From a virus (Duplodnaviria > Caudoviricetes), in IMG/VR virus record IMGVR_UViG_3300032259_000003, positions 12,589 to 76,588 of that record: a stretch of 64,000 nucleotides of DNA, one strand, 5' to 3'. A program made the translations under genes and the position numbers. Positions 2,307 through 58,067 of the stretch are shown piece after piece. The notes under the pieces are model-generated. The model saw nothing but the letters and a program-made list of their open reading frames with translations. It made no database searches and was not told the origin of the DNA. Each line of letters starts with the position of its first letter. Position 1 is the first letter of the stretch.

Positions 2307-3373
2307 TGATTCCTCATATAATACTGTTGTGCCTGGGGTCCTAAAATACCCACTAGGCTATTCTCTTGTACAATGCTACCAAAAATAGGGTCATCCCCTT
2401 TTTTAACAAAGTCATTCAACGTTACCGCGCCATCTTGTAGGGCGTTAAAATTCGCACCGCCGGCTATTTTACGCTGTCGGTCCTCACTTTGTTTGTTGAA
2501 CCATATCCCCCCTGATTCAATGCTCCGCGGTCGTCCTTTGACTTCGGTTATAGAGATGCACCGCCCGCGCCTATGGTCGTCTACACGCTCTCCTAATGGG
2601 ATCTCGGTTCCGTGTAGCGCTATGCAAGTTAAGCATGTCCGCAGGTCAAGCGCCGCGATACGAATCACCCGACTTATAATGTCAGCATTGGCTACTTGGT
2701 GTAAGGCTTGACTATCACGTTGTGCGGTTAATACCAATGACCGTGTGAGTGAATCCGCCGCTGATATTGTTAGTGCGGGCTTATCCCCTATGCCTTGCAT
2801 CAAGTCAAACAACTGCATCACTGTTTCGCCCGGGTTAACACCCATAGCAAAATTGCGTATGATGGTATTCTCTACTACTTCATTGATATACCCACGATAC
2901 CCACTAAGCGATTCAACCCACGCATCACTATCTACATATTGCACGATACGCTGTAATGCTTCGGGGTCGGGTGTATTCCACACAATACCAAAGGTTTGCA
3001 GCGCATCATCGCTTAAATTGCCGAAGGCCAATTCCCGTGTAAGGATACCGGCCTGTTTTATGCCTACCGCTTGCAGGGCTTCGGCGCTACCATCAATCAG
3101 CGTCACCGAAGCTCGCAAAAAGTCATCAAGGTCACTCTGGAACATACGATAAACGGTATTATTAGGGTTCAATTGTTGCCCTAAACCCGCTAACCGTGCC
3201 GCCTCAACTTCTAAGGCTTGCAAACTCCGACCCATTGCACCGCGGTTCGCACCCACGCCAATAGCATCAAGCGTTTGACCAATGACTTTGTAATATTCAC
3301 GGTCTAATAACTCATCCACTAATTGCTTAGTGCGGTATATCGCATTTGGATCTATTGCAATGGGTTGTACCAT
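2303..3373 (-). CDS. Minor head/morphogenesis protein (SPP1 gp7/Mu F-like)
   Basis: Follows the portal region. Carries D.RTCLTCIALHG...DHRRGRC, resembling the gp7/F Cys/His motif. Confidence 0.68.
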   Translation of the reverse strand: MVQPIAIDPNAIYRTKQLVDELLDREYYKVIGQTLDAIGVGANRGAMGRSLQALEVEAARLAGLGQQLNPNNTVYRMFQSDLDDFLRASVTLIDGSAEALQAVGIKQAGILTRELAFGNLSDDALQTFGIVWNTPDPEALQRIVQYVDSDAWVESLSGYRGYINEVVENTIIRNFAMGVNPGETVMQLFDLMQGIGDKPALTISAADSLTRSLVLTAQRDSQALHQVANADIISRVIRIAALDLRTCLTCIALHGTEIPLGERVDDHRRGRCISITEVKGRPRSIESGGIWFNKQSEDRQRKIAGGANFNALQDGAVTLNDFVKKGDDPIFGSIVQENSLVGILGPQAQQYYMRNQ

Positions 3374-3802: not shown

Positions 3803-5319
3803 TAGTTTAGGTCTCCATTATTATTATTGGCTTCTAATTGTGGTGGTGCTAACGCGCCGAAGGGGTCCCCAATAGATCCCAACCGCGCGACTCGTGCCTG
3901 TGCTTCGGTGTCATTACCTTCTGTTAGTTCCTTAATCTTCTTATCGTCCCAACCAAATACCGGCGCGACAATCTTATAATACTCTTTTATTGGAAATGTT
4001 GGGTTGGCTGCCATCAATAGCGCGGCATTTTCTAATATCTCTTTGTCATTCCTAATTTCACCCTTGGCCCACTGTGCATTAAATGACTCATACGCCGGCG
4101 GTCGCTTCCCATATTGTGTCTCAACAATCCAGGCCATTTCTAAAACCTGTTCCCACGATGCACCGTAACTAATTTGGGCGCGTTTAATTCGCCCTAAAAG
4201 CGCGGCCTCGTTTTGCTTCTTGGCTTCGCCTGATTCATTGGCTCCGCCGCCGGGCTTGGGTGTTTTGGATACGGCATAAATTTGGTCAATGATCCATTCG
4301 CCTTGACTGATAAACGGGACAATGCCACCGGCCGCAAATTCTCCGGCTTCAATCTTCTCATCATTACTTGCAGGTTGCCCACCGGTTAAATTTAAAAACA
4401 TGCCTGGCGTGACCTTTGACGGGAATGTAAACCCACCGATACCATAACGTACCGGGAACGCGGTTAACTCACTTGTTGCGACCATGCTTACCATTGTGCG
4501 ATTGAGTGCGTCTTGTAACGGGATCGAGTCATCTATATCACTTCGCCCGTAATTATCATATCGTGTAGAATTGTTGCGGAAATGAACAACGGGAATAATA
4601 CCTAACGGGTTCGGTTGTATGTAGTCTATACCATCCTCTGTATATGGTGATAATTGATCGCCACCGTCTGATATGTAGCGGTGTATCGCGTCATTGGTAT
4701 AGGTATTGACGCGCATTGTATCGGCCGTTTGCCCGCCTTCGCTTGTAATGTGCCATATCTTTATGGCGATGGTTGGGTTCTTTGCATACGTGCTAGGATA
4801 TAACACCACCATGCCAGATATGCCATCATAGGCCGGCTCATGTACCCAATTGCAAAATTCCGCGCCGTCTTCAAAGTCAACAAAAAGGAATGTATCGCCA
4901 TCTCTTGATGTGCTTTCCGCAATCTGTAATTGTAATTGGTCTGCGCGGTTGCGCCTAAGTTGGTCATTGGCCCACTCGGCCGCCGCGTCGTTGTCTGCCT
5001 CAATACGTATTAACTCCAAACGGTCTACTTTGGTATCCACAATCATTGGCATAAGGTTTACATTAAACGGCGCGCTGTTTGGGTCATACTCATTGCTATC
5101 GCTCGATACACGGCGGCCAATGCTAGAGACGCGTAGCAATTGTCGCATCTCGTTAGTTAACCCTGCGTCGTGGTCTCCGTCGTAATATCTACGATAGCGG
5201 TGTATCCGGTTTCCGCGTTCCTGCTCGGTTTGCGCGAAAGCATCAAATGACATTTGGCTTTTATTTAAATTGTTTTGTACGGTCCCACGTAACGCCGATT
5301 GTAAAAGGTTGAGGCTCAT
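3802..5319 (-). CDS. Portal protein (SPP1 gp6-like)
   Basis: 505 aa directly after TerL. RYRRYYDG, IPVVHFRN and GRSDIDDSIPLQDALN are SPP1-type portal motifs. Confidence 0.8.
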   Translation of the reverse strand: MSLNLLQSALRGTVQNNLNKSQMSFDAFAQTEQERGNRIHRYRRYYDGDHDAGLTNEMRQLLRVSSIGRRVSSDSNEYDPNSAPFNVNLMPMIVDTKVDRLELIRIEADNDAAAEWANDQLRRNRADQLQLQIAESTSRDGDTFLFVDFEDGAEFCNWVHEPAYDGISGMVVLYPSTYAKNPTIAIKIWHITSEGGQTADTMRVNTYTNDAIHRYISDGGDQLSPYTEDGIDYIQPNPLGIIPVVHFRNNSTRYDNYGRSDIDDSIPLQDALNRTMVSMVATSELTAFPVRYGIGGFTFPSKVTPGMFLNLTGGQPASNDEKIEAGEFAAGGIVPFISQGEWIIDQIYAVSKTPKPGGGANESGEAKKQNEAALLGRIKRAQISYGASWEQVLEMAWIVETQYGKRPPAYESFNAQWAKGEIRNDKEILENAALLMAANPTFPIKEYYKIVAPVFGWDDKKIKELTEGNDTEAQARVARLGSIGDPFGALAPPQLEANNNNGDLN

Positions 5320-12859: not shown

Positions 12860-13231
12860 TTAACCGGTTCGTTTTTGTTTGTGACGCTCGGCGCTCTCTT
12901 CGTGATACTCTAAAATTTTAAAATACTCATTGGCTAACGTGGTGCGGTCGTCAATCGCTCTATTTTTTGTTACCACACCATACACCACAACATCACGCAT
13001 TTTTTTAGTCCGTACGATCTGGTTCTTTTTACCGACAGCTTTGACCATACCGCGCGACCGCAACTCTTCCAGGCCGCGACGGCTCCGGTTGCCTTTACCC
13101 TGACTATACCGTTCTGACACATCGTACTGAGTCGCGTCGCCGTAACGAATAAAACCGGTTAATACCTCAATGCACCGCTGTAATTGCGCCATACGTGCGA
13201 CCCGTTGATTATAGTTAAATTCTCCGGCCAT
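12860..13231 (-). CDS. Hypothetical protein, winged-helix-like and basic
   Basis: 123 aa; near-identical homologue at 50317-50688. Confidence 0.65.
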   Translation of the reverse strand: MAGEFNYNQRVARMAQLQRCIEVLTGFIRYGDATQYDVSERYSQGKGNRSRRGLEELRSRGMVKAVGKKNQIVRTKKMRDVVVYGVVTKNRAIDDRTTLANEYFKILEYHEESAERHKQKRTG

Positions 13232-13482
13232 TAGTCGATCCCTTCCAGCGCGTCGCGCCCTAATGTATAATCGAGTTCATGTAAATAGAGTAGTGCATCT
13301 TGCCGCGCGTCGTCATCTTCAATTTGCCGTATAACCTCTGCCATAAAATCAATATGTTCTATTAGGTCATCCGATGTCATCTGTACGCAATTAATACACA
13401 ATCGCAAATCATGGTAGGCGTATAAATAGTTACCCTGCTCGATCTCGTGGTTGGCTTGTTGGATGTATCCGTCACGTGTCAT
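13231..13482 (-). CDS. Hypothetical protein
   Basis: 83 aa; homologue at 50688-50939. Confidence 0.7.
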   Translation of the reverse strand: MTRDGYIQQANHEIEQGNYLYAYHDLRLCINCVQMTSDDLIEHIDFMAEVIRQIEDDDARQDALLYLHELDYTLGRDALEGID

Positions 13483-14000
13483 GACCCCTTATCCTCTCCG
13501 TATAAAAACGTATTCAGCAAATCAATACTGCCTAACCCGACTTTGACATACAGGCTATCGGCGCTCTTTTTTGCAATCACTCTGGCGCGAAAGTCGGCAT
13601 ATGTCCCCCAAAAACAGCCCGTTTTAACCATCAGCATATCAGCATGTTCAACAGCATAGACCAGATCATCACGCGACGACATGCCAGCGATATAGAACAA
13701 ATGGATACCTTTCGCCCCATAGAAATTCGCACGTGTCAGATTCGCACGTGTCAGATCCGCGCCGGTCAAATGCGCGTGTGCCATATTTGCGTCTACCAGA
13801 TACGCGTGTGCCAGGTCCGCTTTTGACAGATCCGCACGTATCAGCTTCGCGCCTCTCAGATACGCCCGTGTCAGATTCGCACGTGTCAGATCCGCGCCTG
13901 TGAGATTCGCGCCTTTGAGATCCGCACGATAGAGATTCGCGCCTGAAAGATCCGCGCTCGGCTTAATATCGTATTCTTTACCATTAATTTCCTTTATCAT
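13479..14000 (-). CDS. Pentapeptide-repeat protein
   Basis: A(D/N)LxxA repeats plus a C-terminal domain shared with 24285-24941. Confidence 0.9.
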   Translation of the reverse strand: MIKEINGKEYDIKPSADLSGANLYRADLKGANLTGADLTRANLTRAYLRGAKLIRADLSKADLAHAYLVDANMAHAHLTGADLTRANLTRANFYGAKGIHLFYIAGMSSRDDLVYAVEHADMLMVKTGCFWGTYADFRARVIAKKSADSLYVKVGLGSIDLLNTFLYGEDKGS

Positions 14001-14215
14001 AATGCCTTATCCTTTCTTATAAAGCGCTTCCATTCCCCATTAGTAATCTCATCGCGTAACATCGACCACACATCACGCATATTATTTAGCGTAAATAATA
14101 AGCGGCTGACGGCTATCGGGTCATGTAGTCCGATATGGTCTCGCTCATCCCGGTACAACATGGCATAGGTCGCGTCCGGGTTAATCCAAATTGTACAAAA
14201 TTCATCAATATTCAT
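13997..14215 (-). CDS. Hypothetical protein
   Basis: 72 aa; homologue at 51130-51348. Confidence 0.7.
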   Translation of the reverse strand: MNIDEFCTIWINPDATYAMLYRDERDHIGLHDPIAVSRLLFTLNNMRDVWSMLRDEITNGEWKRFIRKDKAL

Positions 14216-14655: not shown

Positions 14656-15678
14656 TTAGAATAACGGCAATTGGTTGGCTTCCCAATCGGTAGCAATGCG
14701 CTTCTCTGCCATCGCTATATATTCCGGGTTAACCTCACATCCGATATAATGACGGTTTAGGCATTTAGCCACTAGCCCAACCGTTCCGGCTCCCATGAAT
14801 GGGTCAATAACTACATCGCCGCGTTTACTTCCGGCCTTGATGCAAATCTCGGGTAATTCAGGGGGGAACGTTGCAAAATGCGCACCTTTGTAGCCTTTTG
14901 TAGATATGTTCCACACAGAACGCTTGTTTGCAAGTGATGGATAATTATATTCATCTCCATTAGCGCGGGCTTGGTGCATCGTGTGTAAGGATTGTCCCTT
15001 GTATTCTAAATTCTTATGGTTGTCGCTTCGTCCTCTTTTGTACCGTTCATCCGTGTTTTCTTTTATCGGTGTTGCTATTGCATCCCTATCATAATAATAC
15101 TGTGCTGACTTCGACAATAAGAATATGTATTCATGCGCTTTGGTCGGTCTATCGGTTACGCTCTCCGGCATGGGATTCGGTTTATTCCAAACGTTATCCA
15201 TTCTTACCCACCACCCTGCATCCTGTAGCGCAATCGCTACACGGTGCGGAACTAGCATAAGGTCTTTATTCTTGAAACCCTGAGTTTTTAATGATCTTGT
15301 ATTTCGTGTTACAGATAACCCTTTTGGTATAATGTGTGCCTCTTCATTTTTCCCACCAATGGCAAGCGTTTGCGCTACTCCTTTACAATCTTTATGAGAG
15401 GAAAACGAATCACCCAAATTGAGCCAGAATACACCGTCAGGTTTTAATACCCGTCTCAATTCCTCGAATATCATAACCAGCTTATCAATGTATTCCTGTA
15501 AGGTTGGCTCAAGACCAAGCTGTCCGCCCACGCCATAATCACGAAGTCCATAGTAAGGGGGACTTGTAACGCAGCATTGCGCGTAATCCGACGGTAATGC
15601 CTTCAAGAAGTTTAGCGCGTCCATGTTGTAAATTTTGTCGTGTAACGTTTTTGTGTGGTGCATTGGTAGTAAATTCAT
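14656..15678 (-). CDS. DNA N4-cytosine/N6-adenine methyltransferase (beta class)
   Basis: Catalytic VTSPPY precedes the SAM-binding DPFMGAGT motif. Confidence 0.92.
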   Translation of the reverse strand: MNLLPMHHTKTLHDKIYNMDALNFLKALPSDYAQCCVTSPPYYGLRDYGVGGQLGLEPTLQEYIDKLVMIFEELRRVLKPDGVFWLNLGDSFSSHKDCKGVAQTLAIGGKNEEAHIIPKGLSVTRNTRSLKTQGFKNKDLMLVPHRVAIALQDAGWWVRMDNVWNKPNPMPESVTDRPTKAHEYIFLLSKSAQYYYDRDAIATPIKENTDERYKRGRSDNHKNLEYKGQSLHTMHQARANGDEYNYPSLANKRSVWNISTKGYKGAHFATFPPELPEICIKAGSKRGDVVIDPFMGAGTVGLVAKCLNRHYIGCEVNPEYIAMAEKRIATDWEANQLPLF

Positions 15679-17606
15679 GATACTTTATCCTTTAGTGATT
15701 GATGCCCGGCATATCCCGGAACAAAATAATATTTAGGGTTATATAGCCATGACTTATCGGGGTCGGTCTCGAATCGCAAGCGGTGCGGTATCATCTCCAT
15801 AGGGATACGTTTTACAATTTTGCCGTCTTCAAATGGCCGGTTGCCTACGCTGGCTTTTACAATATCGAGCCAAAAGCAAGGGGTCTCCTGCCATTGCTCA
15901 TCCTCGGACTGACTAAAGACCTGGTTAATCATATAACCGGTGTTGGCCTTATCGAATCGGATATAATTCGCGTCGGTTGCTCTTAGTGGTTTGCCGGCTT
16001 CTTTATCGGCTTGAGCGACTTTGTTAACCTGCGTGGACATGACGATATGCACATTATTCTGTATAGCGAATCGCTTCACATCCTCAAATGCTTGCTCGTA
16101 TCTATTGATGGCGGAGTCGCTTGGCTTGGCGTTTAATAGTTGCGCGTAATCAAAGAAGACGATCCATATACGCTGACCCTGAGCGCGTTTGCTCTCTAAT
16201 ACCAATTGCATATCGGCTAGGGTCTCGTCAAGCGTGTCCTTCATCTCGAAATAGTCCGTTTTGCCGGTCCAGGCTTGTATCCGCATACGCGCTTCTCCGA
16301 GTGCTTCCATGTGTAACGAGCTTAACTTACGGCCAACCTGCTTCACATTATCTTGCTTCGATCCGAGATAAGCAAAGTGGTCCATCAGTTCCGACAATGT
16401 GATAGCGCGCGGTTTATTATCCACTCTTGATATATAATTGCCGGCATGACGGACCAACGCGCGGCACATCATCTCCGTTTTGCTCCACTCCGGACCCCAC
16501 CATAGGACATTCTCCCCGCGCATGTTTAGCCCGTCTTTGATCGTCTCTAAAAATTGCGTTTTGCCGGTCCCTGTACCGCCACCAATTAAAGTGGTTTTGC
16601 CCGTAATAAAATATTTGATGGTTCCCTCGAATAAGTGTAGGGCGATGATAGGGTTTAGAATGTATCGTTCTACGATAGGCTTCTCTTCTAGCAATGTGAG
16701 GAAGATGCTATCTAAAATTGCGTCACTAGAATTTGCGCCACTCAAGACCGGGTCGGGTTCGGGCTTCGGGTTCTGTTCGTCTGATAATTTAAGCAATTGT
16801 TTGAGACTATCGCCCTCATATAACTTGCAATAGTCCGCTAGGTCGCCATGCTCCGACAGGGGCATATCCACCAATTCAATCATGGGTATTTGCGCTTTTA
16901 CCTTTTTGGATACCGCCGCGCCTTTGTCATCCTTATCATAGGCGTATAGTATCCGGCCTTGCCACTTCTCACTAAGTTCTGTGAGTAGTTCGGGTTTGAT
17001 AGCATGTTCTCCGCCGGTTTGAGCAAAGGCCGGTACACCGTGGTACTGTGCCGATATGGTGCTGATCTCTCCATTGCATAACACAATTACGCCTTTACCC
17101 ATGGCTATCGCTTTATCGAGCCAATACCAACACGCCTTATACCCTGGCGATGATATATACTTGTCTTTTTTGCTGCCGTCAGCATTTACAAGGTTATCAA
17201 GGAACCGATAACGTAGGCCTGTATCGGTCGGATACATGGCGGCTCTCCGGCCCTTATGGGTGCACAATTCCCATTTGGCCGCTTCTAATGCTTTGCCGGG
17301 TATGCCGTGATCCTGCCCTAGTGCATTAAGGTCGATATATTCTTTGGTTGTATCGGTCGCAGGGTGTAAACCGTGTTCGGGTGTCTCAATGCCTAACTTT
17401 TTGGCCAGGTCGTATAGGCTACCCTCATCTTCTCCGGCGTGATACTTAAATGCACCGTGTTCTCCGTCTAACGCGACCGTTATTTTAAATGACATGCTAT
17501 CTGACCCCGGCTTGGTTGGATGGTTACATATCCATTGTCCGTTTTGATATTTGAGTGGGCCGCGGCTCTCCAGGTTCGCTTTGATCTTATCCCAGGTTGT
17601 CATCAT
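15675..17606 (-). CDS. Primase-helicase fusion (TOPRIM + SF4/DnaB-like helicase)
   Basis: TOPRIM-like segment with AYDKDDKG, Walker A GGGTGTGKT, FFDYAQL, STQVNK. Confidence 0.85.
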   Translation of the reverse strand: MMTTWDKIKANLESRGPLKYQNGQWICNHPTKPGSDSMSFKITVALDGEHGAFKYHAGEDEGSLYDLAKKLGIETPEHGLHPATDTTKEYIDLNALGQDHGIPGKALEAAKWELCTHKGRRAAMYPTDTGLRYRFLDNLVNADGSKKDKYISSPGYKACWYWLDKAIAMGKGVIVLCNGEISTISAQYHGVPAFAQTGGEHAIKPELLTELSEKWQGRILYAYDKDDKGAAVSKKVKAQIPMIELVDMPLSEHGDLADYCKLYEGDSLKQLLKLSDEQNPKPEPDPVLSGANSSDAILDSIFLTLLEEKPIVERYILNPIIALHLFEGTIKYFITGKTTLIGGGTGTGKTQFLETIKDGLNMRGENVLWWGPEWSKTEMMCRALVRHAGNYISRVDNKPRAITLSELMDHFAYLGSKQDNVKQVGRKLSSLHMEALGEARMRIQAWTGKTDYFEMKDTLDETLADMQLVLESKRAQGQRIWIVFFDYAQLLNAKPSDSAINRYEQAFEDVKRFAIQNNVHIVMSTQVNKVAQADKEAGKPLRATDANYIRFDKANTGYMINQVFSQSEDEQWQETPCFWLDIVKASVGNRPFEDGKIVKRIPMEMIPHRLRFETDPDKSWLYNPKYYFVPGYAGHQSLKDKVS

Positions 17607-17823: not shown

Positions 17824-18741
17824 TTATCCTGTCGCTAAAATTCGGTTACGGCGTTCAATCTCTTCTTGTGATAGTTTGGGCTTGCTTTTGTTCTCAGCAT
17901 AAAATTCGTGATAATGTTCCCCGAACTTGGTCGCGTCTCTCGGAATAGATACGTCGGGGTATTTTTTTGTATACCACACTTTGAACCGTTTTAGATGTTC
18001 CGCGGTACAGTCCGTGTTATTCGCCTTGTGGATACCACACACTACTTTTTTAACTTTGCCAATTCGCGCTCCAATGGTTTTACGTGTGTCTTTATCCATC
18101 GCGTCATACGACTCTATATTGTTATTCCATACGGTAGTCAATAACCAGTCAAATACTTCGTTGCGCTTACGTGGTGCTTTTGGTTCGGGCTTGGGGTCTT
18201 TACCGTTGCCGATGTCCGTTATGCTATCGGCTTGTTGGTCGGAGATGGATTGAGGAACATAGGGTAAAAGCCCCGCGTCGGATTTATCCGACATAGTATT
18301 TGTTTTTTCTTTCTTTACTACCTCTTTATTTTGTACCTCTTTATTTTGTAGTGTGGGGTTTTCCGTGTCCTGGGTTTCCGTAAACGGCTTTCCAGTCAGC
18401 GGCTTATAGTCTGGATTATCGGTCTTTACTTCATAAATGAGGTGGGGTGTGTAGCTCGTAATGCGTTTTGTTTTTTCATCAATGATTTTAGTACGTTCTT
18501 TGATGTAGCCAGCGCTTATCAGCTCTCGAAGGATACGACGGACTTTATCACGGCCACATTGCTGTTGTAAATCAGCTATAATAATGAGCCAATCACTAGG
18601 CTGACTCAATAAATAACCTAATAACCCGCGCGCCTCAAATGATAAAGTCCTATCTTGCAACATATCACGGCGTATCATTGCATAAGGGTTATCTTTATCG
18701 TGCTTTGCTTTTTTTAGTGTCTCGGTCTTTTTTGTGGTCAT
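17824..18741 (-). CDS. Replication initiator (N-terminal winged helix)
   Basis: LSFEARGLLGYLLS...GRDKVRRILRELISAGY HTH, internal repeats, located upstream of the primase-helicase. Confidence 0.75.
   Translation of the reverse strand: MTTKKTETLKKAKHDKDNPYAMIRRDMLQDRTLSFEARGLLGYLLSQPSDWLIIIADLQQQCGRDKVRRILRELISAGYIKERTKIIDEKTKRITSYTPHLIYEVKTDNPDYKPLTGKPFTETQDTENPTLQNKEVQNKEVVKKEKTNTMSDKSDAGLLPYVPQSISDQQADSITDIGNGKDPKPEPKAPRKRNEVFDWLLTTVWNNNIESYDAMDKDTRKTIGARIGKVKKVVCGIHKANNTDCTAEHLKRFKVWYTKKYPDVSIPRDATKFGEHYHEFYAENKSKPKLSQEEIERRNRILATG
18320..18410. repeat. Candidate origin: 15-bp tandem ACCTCTTTATTTTGT x2 plus GGNTTTCC-type iterons
   Basis: Repeats at 18320/18335 and 18357/18372/18386, inside the initiator gene as in lambda O. 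Confidence 0.5.
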
Positions 18742-18743
18742 GA

Positions 18744-19016
18744 CTATTCTTCTCCTTCAAAGTCTGATAAATACCCTGCCTCTGTCAATTCTTTGATAAT
18801 GCGTTTGGCGAAGATTTCCGAACTCTGACGCACGATGTCTGCATAACCAATAGGCTGGTCATCTGTCTGGCTCGCTAAATACACCAATACGCCAATCGCT
18901 TCAAATGATAGGCTCTCATCCTGTACTGTTTCCCGACTCAGGATAAAATAGGCTTTACTGGTTCCGTGTTGGTCGCGGATAATATTAACATCTTCGCTCT
19001 TTTTGTTCGTTGCCAT
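18744..19016 (-). CDS. Stand-alone winged-helix mini-protein, paralogue of the initiator N-terminus
   Basis: QDESLSFEAIGVLVYLASQ...KRIIKELTEAGYL aligns with QDRTLSFEARGLLGYLLSQ...RRILRELISAGYI of 17824-18741. Confidence 0.75.
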   Translation of the reverse strand: MATNKKSEDVNIIRDQHGTSKAYFILSRETVQDESLSFEAIGVLVYLASQTDDQPIGYADIVRQSSEIFAKRIIKELTEAGYLSDFEGEE

Positions 19017-19049
19017 AACTCAAATACTCCTTGAACTAGTAAGCCCTAG

Positions 19050-19078
19050 TTGCATAGAGTCGGGGTTTGTGTTACACT
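19050..19078 (+). promoter_or_regulatory. Antisense promoter TTGCAT-N17-TACACT
   Basis: Consensus spacing. The equivalent in unit B is TTGCAT-N17-TATACT at 57695-57723. Confidence 0.7.
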
Positions 19079-19084
19079 TGGGGT

Positions 19085-19145
19085 ACTTAAGCATATGCTT
19101 CCCTTCCCCGGCTCTACTTTTCGCGAAGTAGGGCTTTCACTTTTA
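19085..19145 (+). ncRNA. Predicted small antisense (counter-transcribed) RNA of the replication operon leader
   Basis: Promoter upstream. Stem-loop 1 (AAGC-atat-GCTT), then terminator hairpin 19111-19134 and a T-rich tract. Structure is conserved with different sequence in unit B. Confidence 0.6.
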
Positions 19146-19161
19146 TTTTGTTGTACCTCTC

Positions 19162-19190
19162 AGTATAACCGAAGTCCTTTTTTGACGCAA
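19162..19190 (-). promoter_or_regulatory. Replication operon promoter TTGCGT-N17-TATACT
   Basis: Consensus spacing; conserved at 57816-57844. Confidence 0.7.
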
Positions 19191-19203
19191 CTAGTTAATG
19201 GTG

Positions 19204-19974
19204 TTAGTTTTGGTCTACTGACTTAAAATAGTCGTTAATTCGCTTGAGTATCTTCTTTGCGTTGCGGTTCCCGTATACCTCGATAAGCCACGTCTCAGGA
19301 TGTTTGTTACTCTTAGATGGATTGCAACCTGTATAACCATTAAACCCGTGTCTATTACCACATAATGGGACCATATTCGTCACTACTGTACCCGGACATT
19401 CTACGCCTGATATTGATGTATCTATTGGTAGCCAATGATCCAATTCGTAGCCTGTGAATAGATCAAATGGCCGCTTACATACCGCGCAAGCGTGGTTAAA
19501 GTATTCGAGCATCGCCTTACAATGTTCATCGGTAAACGTATCAGGCAATGAGTTTTTGCGAGCGATATAACGTTGGTCGTGTACGCGCATCTTATCTCTA
19601 TTTTCTTGTCGATATTGACGCGCATACTCAGCATAGTATTCTTTATTTTCTTGATAGTGTTGACGCTTATACCCAGCATAGTATTCTTTATTCTCTTGAT
19701 AGTGTTGACGATTATATTCAGCGATAGCATCTTTATTCTCTTGTCGACGTTGACGATCATACTCAGCATAGTATTCTTTATTCTCTTGATAATATTGACG
19801 ACAACGCTTAGTGATAGCATCTTTATTCTCTTGATAATATTGACGCTTATGCTCAGCCTCACAAACTTTACACGAGCCCCTTAGCTTACCGGTCTTTTTG
19901 CTTCTAAGGCTATAATATTCAGTTGTCGCAGGCTTACACTCTCCGCATTTCTTGCATGCCTTGGTTTCAGTCAT
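19204..19974 (-). CDS. HNH endonuclease with N-terminal Cys motif and ~15-aa charged repeats
   Basis: CKKC/CKVC, about six RQ(Y/H)YQENK repeats, CAVC...LDHWLP...C...CN.SK. Absent from unit B. Confidence 0.85.
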   Translation of the reverse strand: MTETKACKKCGECKPATTEYYSLRSKKTGKLRGSCKVCEAEHKRQYYQENKDAITKRCRQYYQENKEYYAEYDRQRRQENKDAIAEYNRQHYQENKEYYAGYKRQHYQENKEYYAEYARQYRQENRDKMRVHDQRYIARKNSLPDTFTDEHCKAMLEYFNHACAVCKRPFDLFTGYELDHWLPIDTSISGVECPGTVVTNMVPLCGNRHGFNGYTGCNPSKSNKHPETWLIEVYGNRNAKKILKRINDYFKSVDQN

Positions 19975-20019
19975 GTTCGCTCCGTTTTAACTCGTTATGG
20001 TGTTAGTTTTGGTCTTCAT

Positions 20020-20232
20020 TTATTCATTCCCTTCCTCAAATAATGTCGCCGGGTCAACACCTAACACGTTACAGATAGCAATCATTTTACTAACCCGTAA
20101 CCACGCATCGCCGCGCTCCAGGTGGGATATGGTTTCCCGTCCATAACCTAGTTGGTCAGCAATGTCCTTTTGCGTGTAGCCGAGTGCTTTGCGTCGTTGT
20201 TTGAGTTTGGCAATGATGGCTTGCTCATTCAT
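20020..20232 (-). CDS. XRE-family HTH regulator
   Basis: LGYTQKDIADQLGYGRETISHLERG. Probable start is the ATG at 20232. Confidence 0.88.
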   Translation of the reverse strand: MNEQAIIAKLKQRRKALGYTQKDIADQLGYGRETISHLERGDAWLRVSKMIAICNVLGVDPATLFEEGNE

Positions 20233-20467
20233 GGTCTTCGCGTTCCTTCCATTGCTCATATGAATAATTCCAATCGCTTAATTTGCGCGTGTATTCGATA
20301 GTCTGCGGTGTAGGCTTTATTATATATTTGACATACCATTGGCCGTTAGAATAGAACAAGCTCCGCATGATGTAACGGCGGTCAAAATAGCGATATTCAA
20401 ACCCGTGTACAATTGGCAGCGGGGTCGGTCTACATTCCGAACATTCGCATAATTCGTTATGATTCAT
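20225..20467 (-). CDS. Hypothetical protein
   Basis: Homologue at 58305-58547. Probable start MNHNELCEC. Confidence 0.6.
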   Translation of the reverse strand: MNHNELCECSECRPTPLPIVHGFEYRYFDRRYIMRSLFYSNGQWYVKYIIKPTPQTIEYTRKLSDWNYSYEQWKEREDHE

Positions 20468-21143
20468 CGTTGGCCTCAACCTCATACACTTTTACGAGAT
20501 AGGTTTTGCTTGTGTCTAACCAACCAACAGAATCAGGAATGTCTATTATCTGCGCTCCCCCGTTCAAATCGTCTATTTCATTGGTTATAAACTCTGCAAC
20601 TAGCGTTGTCTTCGGCTTCGGTTCGTTGCCGCGTATGTTCACGGCAATGTATCGTTCCAACCAGGCGCAGGTCATAAAATTGTTACCCGCCGCTTTTAGC
20701 GCGTCAAGCGCGGTTTGCATCCCATACTCAGGATTATTGACAATACCATTTAGCGTTTTGAGATGTGAGTATTTAATGACGGTCGGTTCCCCGTCTTCGG
20801 TATACAGCAAAGGCCAACGGATGTTATCCGGCCATGTCCGCACCGTGTGTAGGTAACTTTGTAGTGTCGCCGGTTTTTTGCCGGTCATGTCCGCTATCAT
20901 TTTGATGTCATCTGGCGACGGGTTTAATAGGGCTAATATGTCGCCTATAGTCCATTGTGACAACTCGGCTTGTTCTAATAGGTTTTCGATTACCAATTGT
21001 GCCGATTCAGTTAAATAGTCGCCGGCGTTTTGTAATTGGTGCATCACGTCTCTATGGTGTTTTGGCGCGTGGTGGTGTGTTTGTACCTGAGTCACGTTAA
21101 ATTCGCTATTTTGCGCGTGTTGGGGTTCAATTTGGGTATTCAT
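20457..21143 (-). CDS. Hypothetical protein
   Basis: 228 aa; homologue at 58537-59217, differing mainly in a ~30-aa C-terminal segment. Confidence 0.7.
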   Translation of the reverse strand: MNTQIEPQHAQNSEFNVTQVQTHHHAPKHHRDVMHQLQNAGDYLTESAQLVIENLLEQAELSQWTIGDILALLNPSPDDIKMIADMTGKKPATLQSYLHTVRTWPDNIRWPLLYTEDGEPTVIKYSHLKTLNGIVNNPEYGMQTALDALKAAGNNFMTCAWLERYIAVNIRGNEPKPKTTLVAEFITNEIDDLNGGAQIIDIPDSVGWLDTSKTYLVKVYEVEANDES

Positions 21144-23039: not shown

Positions 23040-23150
23040 TTGACTATCAATATACAATATTGTATCATATCTATAGTGATAGTGCAATATAGAACAAATT
23101 AGAACACAGCATGAGAGACAGTTGACAAGATACGTAACATGTAGTATACT
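23040..23150. promoter_or_regulatory. Divergent early control region
   Basis: Leftward TTGCAC-N17-TACAAT (23087-23059), rightward TTGACT-N17-TATCAT (23040-23068) and TTGACA-N17-TATACT (23122-23150). 14-bp palindrome ATACAATATTGTAT at 23052-23065. Confidence 0.78.
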
Positions 23151-23977: not shown

Positions 23978-24285
23978 TGAAAAGCTATATAGAATTTGCA
24001 ATGGTTCCAAAAGAAGAAGACCGCTCACTATGGAATGAATCGTGCCAGTTGTGTTTTGGTAAAGTCGATCTTGATAATGTGGATACTGATGATCTTGAGC
24101 AATGGCTACGCCATAGTATGCGTCATAGTGGTGTAAGCTCAAATGTAAATTTTACGGTTCGCACACAATCCCATTTTATCATGTTGATGCACGTATACGA
24201 TTATCTCAATTCGCTTGGCCTAATCAGTGGCATGATTATGACCCAAAATATGATAAATTTTAATGAATTGCGGGAGATAGAATAA
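23977..24285 (+). CDS. Hypothetical protein
   Basis: 102 aa, coupled to neighbours; identical at 61732-62040. Confidence 0.65.
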   Translation: MKSYIEFAMVPKEEDRSLWNESCQLCFGKVDLDNVDTDDLEQWLRHSMRHSGVSSNVNFTVRTQSHFIMLMHVYDYLNSLGLISGMIMTQNMINFNELREIE

Positions 24286-24941
24286 TGAAACAAAAAATTA
24301 ATGGTAAGACATACGATATTAAGCCGAACGCGGATCTATCAGGTGCGGATCTATCAGGTGCGTATCTATCAGGCGCGATTCTCACACGCGCGGATCTATC
24401 AGGCGCGGATCTCACAGGCGCGATTCTCACACGCGCGGATCTCTACCTGGCGAATCTATCAGGCGCGAATCTGGAACGTGCGTATCTATCAGGCGCGAAT
24501 CTCTATCGTGCGGATCTCACAGGCGCGGATCTCACAGGCGCGAATCTGGAACGTGCGTATCTATCAGGCGCGAATCTCACACGCGCGGATCTCACAGGCG
24601 CGGATCTCACAGGCGCGGATCTCACAGGCGCGAATCTCACAGGCGCGAATCTATCAGGCGCGGATCTCACAGGCGCGAATCTCTATCGTGCGAATTTCTA
24701 TGGTGCGAAAGGCATCCATTTGTTCTATATCGCGGGCATGTCTTCACGTAGTGATTACGTCTTTGCAGTAGAGCATACCGATATGCTGATGATTAAGGCC
24801 GGTTGCTTTTGGGGTACATACGCGGAGTTTCGCGCTAAAGTGATTGCAGAAAAAGGCGCGGATAGCATGTATGTTAGAGTCGGGTTAGTCGGTTTGGATG
24901 CATTGAACACATTCTTGTATGGGGAGGATAAGACATCATGA
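24285..24941 (+). CDS. Pentapeptide-repeat protein
   Basis: About 24 A(D/N/Y)L(S/T)GA units plus the shared C-terminal domain. Confidence 0.92.
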
Positions 24942-56207: not shown

Positions 56208-57224
56208 TTATCCTGTCGCTAATATCCGGTTACGGCGTTCAATCTCTTCTTGTGATAGTTTGGGCTTGCTTTTGTTTTGTAGCCTAACCCGTCCTACATA
56301 GTCCGATATAACGGAAGGACTTTGCATCAAACTAGCGGTCGGGTTCTTGGATCGGTACAATTGGACGGCTTTCTCTAATTCCGTGACGCTGACCATTTTC
56401 CCATAATGACCCTGCTCATTTTGGTTTATCTCATCAAAAAACCGCCACTCATCTTTGATCTTCTGCGTCTTCTTACCGCTTAACATGTGTGCAATGTCCC
56501 AGGCGCGGCCATTGGTTAACCCAAGTAATTTTGGAATCACCTTAAATAACTCATACGCATTGTCTTTTTGGGCTTTGACTTTTGTTATACCTTCGTCGGA
56601 TGGCTTCGGTTCGGGTTTTGGTTCGGGCTTGGGGTCTTTACCGTTGCCAATGTCCGTTATGCTATCGGCTTGTTGGTCGGAGATGGATTGAGGAACATAG
56701 GGTAAAAGCCGCGCGTCGGATTTATCCGACATAGTATTTTTCTTACTTATAGGGTTCTTATTAAAAGAGTTCTTATTAGTAGCTCTCTCTGAGCTAGGGG
56801 GGGTAGCTCTCTCTGAGCTAGGGGGTAGCTCTCTCTGAGCTAGGTCATGCTTAATCTGTTGCAAAACGGCTTGCTTTTGCGTCTCAGTTTCGGCTTTTGC
56901 ATAGTCCGTATTGTAGGAATATATCCGATTGAGTTGTATCAAGTTGGCTTTACCTTTGCCTTGACTTTTTACAGTGATAAAACCTAGCTTTTTGAGTCCA
57001 GTTATCGCCCGTTTAACGCTGGCGACGCTTGTATGCGTTTCTTTTGCAATGGTGGCCTGAGATTTGAAGTATTTTGATCCTTGCCGGCCGATAGTTTGCA
57101 CTACATTCGTATAGATAGCCAATTCGATAGGCGAAGTTTCCCGTTGTACAATGATAGGGATACGAGCGTAATAGTATAAAACTTCGTCGGTTCCATCTAA
57201 TTCGTATGATTGATTCGTTGCCAT
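56208..57224 (-). CDS. Replication initiator (HTH N-terminus)
   Basis: KSQATIAKETHTSVASVKRAITGLKKLGFI HTH, internal iterons. Shares linker and C-terminus with 17824-18741. Confidence 0.78.
   Translation of the reverse strand: MATNQSYELDGTDEVLYYYARIPIIVQRETSPIELAIYTNVVQTIGRQGSKYFKSQATIAKETHTSVASVKRAITGLKKLGFITVKSQGKGKANLIQLNRIYSYNTDYAKAETETQKQAVLQQIKHDLAQRELPPSSERATPPSSERATNKNSFNKNPISKKNTMSDKSDARLLPYVPQSISDQQADSITDIGNGKDPKPEPKPEPKPSDEGITKVKAQKDNAYELFKVIPKLLGLTNGRAWDIAHMLSGKKTQKIKDEWRFFDEINQNEQGHYGKMVSVTELEKAVQLYRSKNPTASLMQSPSVISDYVGRVRLQNKSKPKLSQEEIERRNRILATG
56779..56844. repeat. Three palindromic iterons GTAGCTCTCTCTGAGCTAG (candidate origin)
   Basis: 19-bp unit at 56779, 56803 and 56825, each containing TAGCTC-N5-GAGCTA. 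Confidence 0.8.
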
Positions 57225-57661: not shown

Positions 57662-57694
57662 AACTCAAATACTCCTTGAACTAAGAGGCTCTGG

Positions 57695-57723
57695 TTGCAT
57701 GGAATAGGGGGTTGTGTTATACT
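57695..57723 (+). promoter_or_regulatory. Antisense promoter TTGCAT-N17-TATACT
   Basis: Equivalent to 19050-19078. Confidence 0.72.
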
Positions 57724-57728
57724 TGGGG

Positions 57729-57800
57729 TACATATGAGAATATTCTCTGCGTTACCCCTATCCCGGCTTTGTGTTTGCGCACAGAGCCTTCACTTTTTAT
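57729..57800 (+). ncRNA. Predicted small antisense RNA (unit B variant)
   Basis: Stem-loop 1 (GAGA-atat-TCTC core), terminator hairpin 57765-57788 and a T-rich tract. Confidence 0.6.
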
Positions 57801-57815
57801 TTTGTTGTACCTCTC

Positions 57816-57844
57816 AGTATAACCTAAGTCCTTTTTTGACGCAA
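57816..57844 (-). promoter_or_regulatory. Replication operon promoter TTGCGT-N17-TATACT
   Basis: Equivalent to 19162-19190. Confidence 0.7.
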
Positions 57845-57857
57845 CTATCTAATGGTG

Positions 57858-58067
57858 TTAGTTTTGGTCTTCAAACAAACTCGCAGGGTCAACACCTAAC
57901 ACGTTGCAGATAGCAATCATTTTACTAACCCGTAACCACGCATCACCGCGTTCCAGTTGGGATATGGTTTCCCGTCCATAGCCTAGTTGGTCCGCAATGT
58001 CCTTTTGCGTGTATCCGAGCGCTTTGCGCCGTTGTTTGAGTTTGGCAATGATGGTTTGCTCATTCAT
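57858..58067 (-). CDS. XRE-family HTH regulator
   Basis: Homologue of 20020-20232. Confidence 0.88.
   Translation of the reverse strand: MNEQTIIAKLKQRRKALGYTQKDIADQLGYGRETISQLERGDAWLRVSKMIAICNVLGVDPASLFEDQN

Follow-up and report, generated by a model that had tools for sequence, protein, structure and literature searches.

A predicted antisense RNA cassette in front of the replication genes of an uncultured phage

The window considered here, a stretch of 64,000 nt, lies within the 76.6-kb IMG/VR virus record IMGVR_UViG_3300032259_000003 (Duplodnaviria; Caudoviricetes), which holds two related phage units in tandem, of ~37.7 kb each and referred to below as unit A and unit B. Our subject is the intergenic gap in front of the replication genes of each unit, and the small antisense RNA gene that this gap probably contains. 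In unit A the gap separates an endonuclease VII/HNH-like open reading frame (ORF) from the first replication gene, a winged-helix ORF which is followed by a replication-initiator-like gene, a short ORF and a primase-helicase (Table 1). The gap of unit B is homologous to that of unit A, with 80% identity, and precedes other first replication genes than those of unit A, of 144 aa and 338 aa. The flanks of the two gaps, both promoters and the region of the ribosome site are nearly identical between the units; the differences are concentrated in the helices described below.

Table 1. Genes and predicted features at the entry to the replication genes of the two units; positions are those of the window.
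Feature	Position	Strand	Remarks
Unit A, intergenic gap	19017-19203		187 nt; genes of unit A here all on the minus strand
Unit A, endonuclease VII/HNH-like ORF	19204-19974	-	256 aa; upstream of the gap
Unit A, winged-helix ORF	18744-19016	-	90 aa; first replication gene; winged-helix, initiator-like PHROG matches
Unit A, replication-initiator-like protein	17824-18741	-	305 aa; downstream of the 90-aa ORF
Unit A, short ORF		-	71 aa; downstream of the 305-aa gene
Unit A, primase-helicase	15675-17606	-	643 aa; follows the 71-aa ORF
Unit A, sense promoter	19190-19162	-	TTGCGT-N17-TATACT; transcript start near 19155; hexamers identical in unit B
Unit A, antisense promoter	19050-19078	+	TTGCAT-N17-TACACT, with preceding TGT (extended -10)
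Unit A, structured leader of the replication mRNA	19017-19155	-	~139 nt; minimum free energy fold holds the outer and inner long-range helices
Unit A, ribosome site and start codon	19032-19027 and 19016-19014	-	AAGGAG; ATG of the 90-aa gene
Unit A, predicted countertranscript	19085-19146	+	~62 nt; small hairpin, C-rich linker, terminator hairpin
Unit A, hairpin H1	19089-19100	+	AAGC-AUAU-GCUU, 12-nt palindrome; two two-sided changes relative to unit B, loop AUAU kept
Unit A, terminator hairpin and T-rich tail	19110-19135 and 19136-19150	+	called by terminator scan; 11-pair fold with three G.U
Unit A, outer long-range helix	19041-19048 (3' strand) with 19129-19136	-	8 Watson-Crick pairs; also found as inverted repeat
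Unit A, inner helix	19055-19065 (3' strand) with 19106-19116	-	11 pairs, one T.G on the plus strand; contains ACUCU
Unit B, gap	57662-57857
Unit B, sense promoter	57816-57844	-	TTGCGT-N17-TATACT
Unit B, antisense promoter	57695-57723	+	TTGCAT-N17-TATACT, with TGT
Unit B, predicted countertranscript	57730-57798	+	~69 nt
Unit B, hairpin H1	57736-57747	+
Unit B, terminator hairpin	57765-57788	+	terminator scan
Unit B, leader	57662-57809	-
Unit B, ribosome site and start codon	57677-57672 and 57661-57659	-	ATG of the 144-aa gene
Unit B, outer helix	57686-57693 with 57782-57789	-
Unit B, inner helix	57701-57710 with 57755-57764	-

An earlier note on this DNA, made from the letters alone, had described the unit A gap as a leader transcribed leftward from one promoter, with a second, rightward promoter and a terminator hairpin inside it; every motif that it listed (the promoters, the AAGGAG, the terminator hairpin and the leader) was recovered at the same coordinates. 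Across the 64 kb, the pattern TTGCRT-N16-18-TAYACT has four matches against 0.13 expected, namely both unit A promoters and their unit B twins. In inverted orientation, the sense promoter of unit B (57816-57845) matches the antisense one (57694-57723) at 70% (GTTGCRT ... GTTATACT), a likeness that suggests a single promoter type, deployed face to face. TATACT also serves as the -10 element of the early promoter near 23123, the strongest of the phage.

The two long-range stems proposed for the leader both hold, the outer helix with 8 Watson-Crick pairs and the inner helix with 11 pairs. Counted pair by pair between A and B, two sequences that are the whole basis for covariation and to that extent a weakness of the argument, the helices carry 8 two-sided compensatory changes, with 0 pairs broken on the plus strand. 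Within the predicted countertranscript, the terminator hairpin shows three two-sided and four one-sided changes, the latter all by way of G.U pairs, and H1 shows two two-sided and no one-sided changes with its loop AUAU retained; taken together these two hairpins have 5 two-sided and 4 one-sided compensatory changes, none of them disruptive on the plus strand in either hairpin. In the outer helix all three differences (3/3) are two-sided, none being one-sided and none breaking a pair.

The wobble pairs carry information on the strand. The G.U pairs of the terminator hairpin, three in A (in its 11-pair fold) and two in B, are functional on the plus strand only: the four that fall within the 10 aligned columns checked are all mismatches on the minus strand, and the third of A follows by the complement rule. 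Because these wobble pairs hold on the plus strand only, the RNA of the plus strand at this hairpin is, judged by its sequence, under selection; and with a hairpin that bears G.U pairs on the plus strand, the local hairpin of the sense leader would be weaker than the outer helix, whose pairs are all Watson-Crick. For the plus-strand RNAs, folding predicts a small hairpin followed by a terminator, at -15.9 kcal/mol for A (z -3.35 against shuffles) and -18.5 kcal/mol for B (z -3.9), and the leaders fold with z-scores of -2.0 (A) and -4.1 (B) in the same comparison.

The question of whether such a cassette is found beyond this record was addressed in contigs with a distant primase-helicase (29-42% identity), by inspection of the gap before their replication genes. 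The layout, though not the sequence itself, is present in 7-8 of the 14 evaluable relatives: a sense promoter comes first, then the terminator and, ~40 nt further on, the promoter of the antisense RNA, both inverted, and finally the ribosome site and the first replication gene. Lengths of 64, 62, 68 and 63 nt are predicted for the antisense RNAs of L004, L005, L008 and L009, respectively; the layout is present as well in L013, L015 (~90 nt) and L020 (~72 nt), more weakly in L014, and was absent or unclear in L007, L010, L011, L017, L018 and L019. TTGCAT is found as the -35 hexamer at the equivalent place in L005 and L009 too. Shuffled sequences give only ~0.1-0.4 terminator-like sites per 360-600 nt, both strands summed, so that the recurrence at one position is far above chance. 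The strand-specific wobble pairs, the compensation in unit B and the cassette in distant relatives all support the claim of the earlier note that a small antisense RNA gene lies inside the leader, and we consider it probable that the gap before the replication genes contains a real gene of this kind.

Several observations weigh against the cassette as interpreted here. The -35 boxes fit TTGACA at only 3/6 positions, and because they are weak a generic promoter scan misses both promoters; the U-tract behind the unit A terminator is interrupted (UUUCACUUUUAUUUU). The whole antisense strand is rich in T (AT skew -0.1 to -0.23), which raises the background of antisense terminator-like sites, and several weak sites of this type were found inside ORFs. 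Both units have an inner helix of 10-11 pairs, but its register is shifted between them and a single non-standard pair occurs per unit, in A on the minus strand. There are, moreover, no close relatives in any collection searched: blastn of phage records gave no alignable third copy of the leader, exact-pattern scans for homologous leaders were empty in viral, genome and metagenome contigs, and a protein-anchored metagenome search with the upstream helix-turn-helix (HTH) gene gave no further copy of the cassette. A neighbouring 228-aa protein has a single distant homologue, on a 1.7-kb contig, and the nearest relatives of the primase-helicase, every one of them metagenomic, are at most 45% identical.

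The weak -35 boxes and the interrupted U-tract would fit a locus with no regulatory antisense RNA, in which the hairpins serve the sense leader, or are protein-binding palindromes or an origin, and the signals on the plus strand are coincidental. At the DNA level, H1 reads as a perfect palindrome of 12 nt in A and B alike, and the half-sites of a dimeric binding protein would co-change just as the arms of a hairpin do. Such an explanation does not account for G.U pairs tolerated on the plus strand only of the terminator hairpin, nor for the covariation of four helices of unrelated sequence, which is unlike that of one repeated half-site; the gap is without iterons, and an antisense terminator preceded by a promoter at a distance of 60-90 nt recurs in 7-8 relatives of unrelated sequence. 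We regard the absence of a regulatory antisense RNA as quite improbable.

Two other readings of the gap were rejected. The plus-strand ORFs at 19050-19226 (58 aa) and 57695-57913 (72 aa) start at the -35 box and have no ribosome site, and there is no conservation at the protein level, the middle third being unrelated between A and B. An origin or iterons in the gap found no support, as the gap is free of direct repeats. It is the initiator gene of unit B that contains three tandem repeats of 22-24 nt (GTAGCTCTCTCTGAGCTAGG...), at 56779-56848, which encode a repeated PPSSERAT. By analogy with lambda O these are candidates for iterons, or for an origin inside that gene; a search for a counterpart in unit A found none.

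Given a probable antisense RNA gene in the gap, its mode of action can be considered. The gap would function as a cassette of convergent promoters, in which the sense promoter makes the replication mRNA with its leader of ~140 nt and the inner promoter on the opposite strand makes an untranslated countertranscript of ~62 nt (A) or ~69 nt (B). The countertranscript would stop at an intrinsic terminator just before the sense start, and would thus be complementary to about the first 65-70 nt of the leader. In the proposed ON fold, the first hairpin lends its 5' arm to long-range pairing with a sequence 8 nt ahead of the ribosome site, with the outer helix stacked on the inner one and AAGGAG free; in the OFF fold this 5' arm is unavailable and the released 3' strands would fold onto the ribosome site. 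By capturing the 5' arm of the nascent leader, the countertranscript would lock the OFF state, and the first replication gene, along with genes coupled to it, would be translated less. Being made from phage DNA, such a regulator would curb the synthesis of initiator when the number of genome copies increases, and with stems that are sequence-specific the control would be type-specific between A and B.

Folding of the leaders supports the two-state leader that the earlier note had envisaged: in both units the outer helix opens the ribosome site, and preventing the outer helix closes it. When the outer helix was enforced, AAGGAG was unpaired with a probability of 0.60 (A) and 0.59 (B); when the 3' strand of that helix was kept from pairing upstream, the values were 0.21 (A) and 0.20 (B). 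The two ensembles are separated by 1.6 kcal/mol in A, where the open state is favoured, and by 2.0 kcal/mol in B, where the closed state is favoured. In these models both leaders look like bistable switches with the outer helix as activator.

The means by which the ribosome site is covered differs between the units. The earlier note had assigned the role of an anti-Shine-Dalgarno (anti-SD) sequence to the ACUCU of the inner stem (complement of 19056-19060), which in unit A is able to pair with GGAGU in the ribosome site. Masking of the antisense target does lead ACUCU, together with neighbouring nucleotides, to pair with the ribosome site of unit A; unit B uses CCUCUU, beside the 3' strand of its outer helix, for the same purpose. 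The predicted closing of the ribosome site on antisense binding likewise held for part of the set: with the target masked, AAGGAG was unpaired with a probability of 0.22 in A (0.60 unmasked) and of 0.12 in L008 (0.41 unmasked). Telling against the switch, masking was without effect in B (0.22 to 0.19) and L005 (0.81 to 0.80), the unconstrained ensemble of unit B already hides the ribosome site (0.22), and the site is open in both states in L005 and closed in both in L004. Since L005 and L004 show no change of state, the translational switch is not general to the family, and a general anti-SD release across relatives is not supported by the masking folds. For a translational switch worked by the countertranscript, we put the chances at about even. 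We infer that both RNAs are made, that they pair in vivo and that the effect falls on translation and not on transcription or decay, and we infer in the same way the biological role; the copy-number or immunity control suggested in the earlier note is an interpretation of this kind only.

The lack of a general ribosome-site switch in silico speaks for promoter interference of the lambda pR/pO type, in which antisense polymerases would collide with or occlude sense transcription, and the small RNA would be a by-product or a mere stop before the sense promoter. The distant relatives conserve the layout and the length of the RNA and no leader fold, and the antisense terminator ends within at most ~10 nt of the sense start in A, B, L005 and, by eye, L004. 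In lambda, a convergent promoter, pO, just upstream of gene O lowers transcription from pR and tunes replication, and the oop RNA has little effect on the O-P mRNA (PMC3985674). Interference alone would not, however, need H1 and the outer helix of the sense strand to keep their pairing by way of 5 two-sided changes, and the two transcription units overlap by ~70 bp only; we hold interference to be unlikely.

The extent of the pairing raises cleavage or decay triggered by the antisense RNA, whereby a duplex of ~60 bp would be cut by RNase III or a similar enzyme and the replication mRNA destabilised, or processed and stabilised. The composite of outer and inner helix, of ~19 bp, would resemble the RNase III processing sites of phages T7 and lambda, which we count in favour of cleavage. 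Complementarity is complete over 62-69 bp, and OOP acts through RNase III, on cII in lambda (PMC3985674). The covariation of the outer-helix 3' strand beside the ribosome site is left unexplained by cleavage, which we judge improbable, while noting that computation does not distinguish it from the translational switch.

A frame that runs through the ribosome site could also couple its own translation to that of the replication gene, as in R1 (Tap) or IncI/IncB (RepY) plasmids, if a leader peptide were translated through that site and the countertranscript covered and blocked its start. Frames in the same register pass through AAGGAG in both units (19094-19020, minus strand, 24 codons in A; 57733-57665, minus strand, 22 codons in B). 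They stop at a TGA 3 nt ahead of the replication gene's ATG, and the AUG of the unit A frame has, by eye, an AAGGG 6 nt in front of it; R1 and IncI1/IncB provide precedents (PMC8053102). The frame of unit B is without a credible ribosome site, some seven out of eight codon differences between A and B, by reading of the frames, change the residue and follow the RNA stems, and the chance of 22 codons staying open is ~0.35. By eye, no equivalent frame reaches the start codon in L004, L005, L008 or L009. Coupling through a leader peptide seems to us highly improbable.

The specificity of the proposed pairing was examined for the two units. Pairing of leader and countertranscript gains -84 and -87 kcal/mol in the cognate combinations and -12 to -15 kcal/mol in the non-cognate ones; as cognate pairing far outweighs non-cognate pairing, A and B would be separate specificity types. 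It is conceivable, though decidedly unlikely in our estimate, that the stems are specificity determinants of an immunity or incompatibility at the level of replication, by which the countertranscript would shut off initiator translation solely on genomes with the cognate leader. A phage already resident, or the first to arrive, would in this way block replication of a superinfecting phage of its own type, and sister types with another pair of leader and initiator, such as A and B, could co-replicate within a single cell.

Among known systems, the cassette is credibly closest to lambda pO-oop by position and to IncI/IncB or R1 by logic, as far as analogy goes. As in lambda pO-oop-tO, a short terminator-ended RNA (OOP of 77 nt in lambda, PMC3985674; ~62-69 nt here) would be made from a promoter that faces the early transcript directly upstream of a replication initiator gene. 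Unlike in lambda, where OOP overlaps and represses the upstream cII, the RNA here is confined to the leader of the replication genes downstream of it, and a dedicated sense promoter adjoins its 3' end. The predicted 3' ends (~19146-19150 in A, ~57798-57803 in B) fall 50-60 nt short of the ends of the upstream ORFs (19204 and 57858), and no overlap of the countertranscript with the upstream ORF was found in A, B, L005, L008 or L009. A search of Rfam with positions 18000-20500, at E-values up to 10, gave no family matching the gap, and two chance matches elsewhere in that range.

Control in the IncI1/IncB and R1 plasmids works through an antisense RNA that, on binding a stem-loop located upstream in the rep leader, blocks an activator interaction near the rep ribosome site, the translation of a leader peptide, or both (PMC8053102). 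The two-state folding described here would have the same activator-block logic as IncIalpha/IncB (Inc RNA/RNAI and the repZ/repA pseudoknot) and R1 (CopA/CopT-Tap), with a target stem-loop far from the ribosome site. It differs from IncIalpha/IncB in that the activator would be a nested helix of 8 bp formed by a hairpin arm, and not a pseudoknot between a loop and a distal sequence. It differs from both in that a leader peptide is doubtful, and in that the setting is a phage with a primase-helicase module and not a theta plasmid, without homology.

A small countertranscript directed against the 5' part of the leader, and alternative folds of the leader, would be shared with pT181, pIP501 and pAMbeta1. 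Attenuation in these plasmids requires a sense-strand terminator that forms on antisense binding. The terminator scan found no sense-oriented terminator in the leader of A or B, and none was found in any relative's gap carrying the layout; attenuation is therefore unlikely, and a pT181-type mechanism was rejected. In pMV158, RNAII acts near the translation start of repB, whereas the antisense RNA here would start ~50 nt upstream of the ribosome site and leave AAGGAG itself uncovered; because it stops short of that site, direct occlusion is unlikely. The likeness to pMV158 RNAII-repB lies in a very short countertranscript (~50 nt) with a 5' tail and a terminator hairpin, which inhibits translation of the initiator (PMC4485353). 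On these analogies the cassette would credibly join the plasmid-type, cis-encoded countertranscript controls of replication-initiator genes.

The genes around the cassette differ between the units. In unit A, the 90-aa protein and the N-terminus of the adjacent 305-aa initiator match the same winged-helix PHROGs (11718, 27492 and 270), and by these matches the 90-aa gene is a stand-alone copy of the DNA-binding domain of the initiator. The first gene in unit B, of 144 aa, is unrelated to it, and an -EGEE ending is common to the first genes of both units. On the other side of the gap, the HNH gene of unit A is an insertion that separates the HTH gene upstream from the cassette and leaves the latter intact; the HNH gene is flanked by a 19-nt direct repeat at 19198-19216 and 19997-20015 (ATGGTGTTAGTTTTGGTCT). 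Unit B is without this gene, and its HTH gene directly adjoins the leader cassette. The HNH gene looks like a free-standing homing-endonuclease insertion which displaced the last codons of the HTH gene and adopted its DQN-stop end.

Gene content bears on the lifestyle of the phage. The earlier note had described a phage with no recognisable integrase, and neither a tyrosine nor a serine integrase was found in the 76.6-kb record. ParA-type and actin-type partition genes were not found in it either, so that, for all the lack of an integrase, the gene content does not establish a plasmid-prophage lifestyle. The relative L004, which also bears the antisense cassette, encodes an Alp7A/ALP_N actin-like segregation protein at 13031-14092, hinting that some members of the clade are plasmid prophages. 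A block of rightward accessory genes in the window includes a 218-aa pentapeptide-repeat protein (24285-24941); proteins of this type are frequent in cyanobacteria, and this one may be a clue to the host.

Two further relatives have motifs of a similar kind at other places. In L013, a second gap (2974-3193) contains a sense terminator-like hairpin, a strong antisense terminator (3120-3090) and candidate antisense promoters, and may represent a further small-RNA cassette, located before a different early gene. In L017, the 840-nt gap before the primase-helicase has two near-identical motifs of a hairpin plus a T-run, 48 nt apart (4522-4552 and 4570-4600), which could be origin repeats or tandem antisense terminators.

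The concept itself is covered by lambda pO/oop and by the countertranscripts of plasmids, and the cassette would not represent a new principle. The pair of A and B amounts to a natural compensatory-mutation experiment, in a cassette of only ~190 bp. If real, the antisense RNA would stand for an uncatalogued family of small regulatory RNAs, without a match in Rfam, at the entry to the replication module in a sparsely sampled clade of uncultured phages, and would mean that phages with primase-helicase modules control the synthesis of their initiator through plasmid-style feedback by a countertranscript. Were the stems to act as determinants of immunity as well, this would be an RNA-only exclusion, directed at replication, in a phage clade without an integrase or a recognisable repressor.

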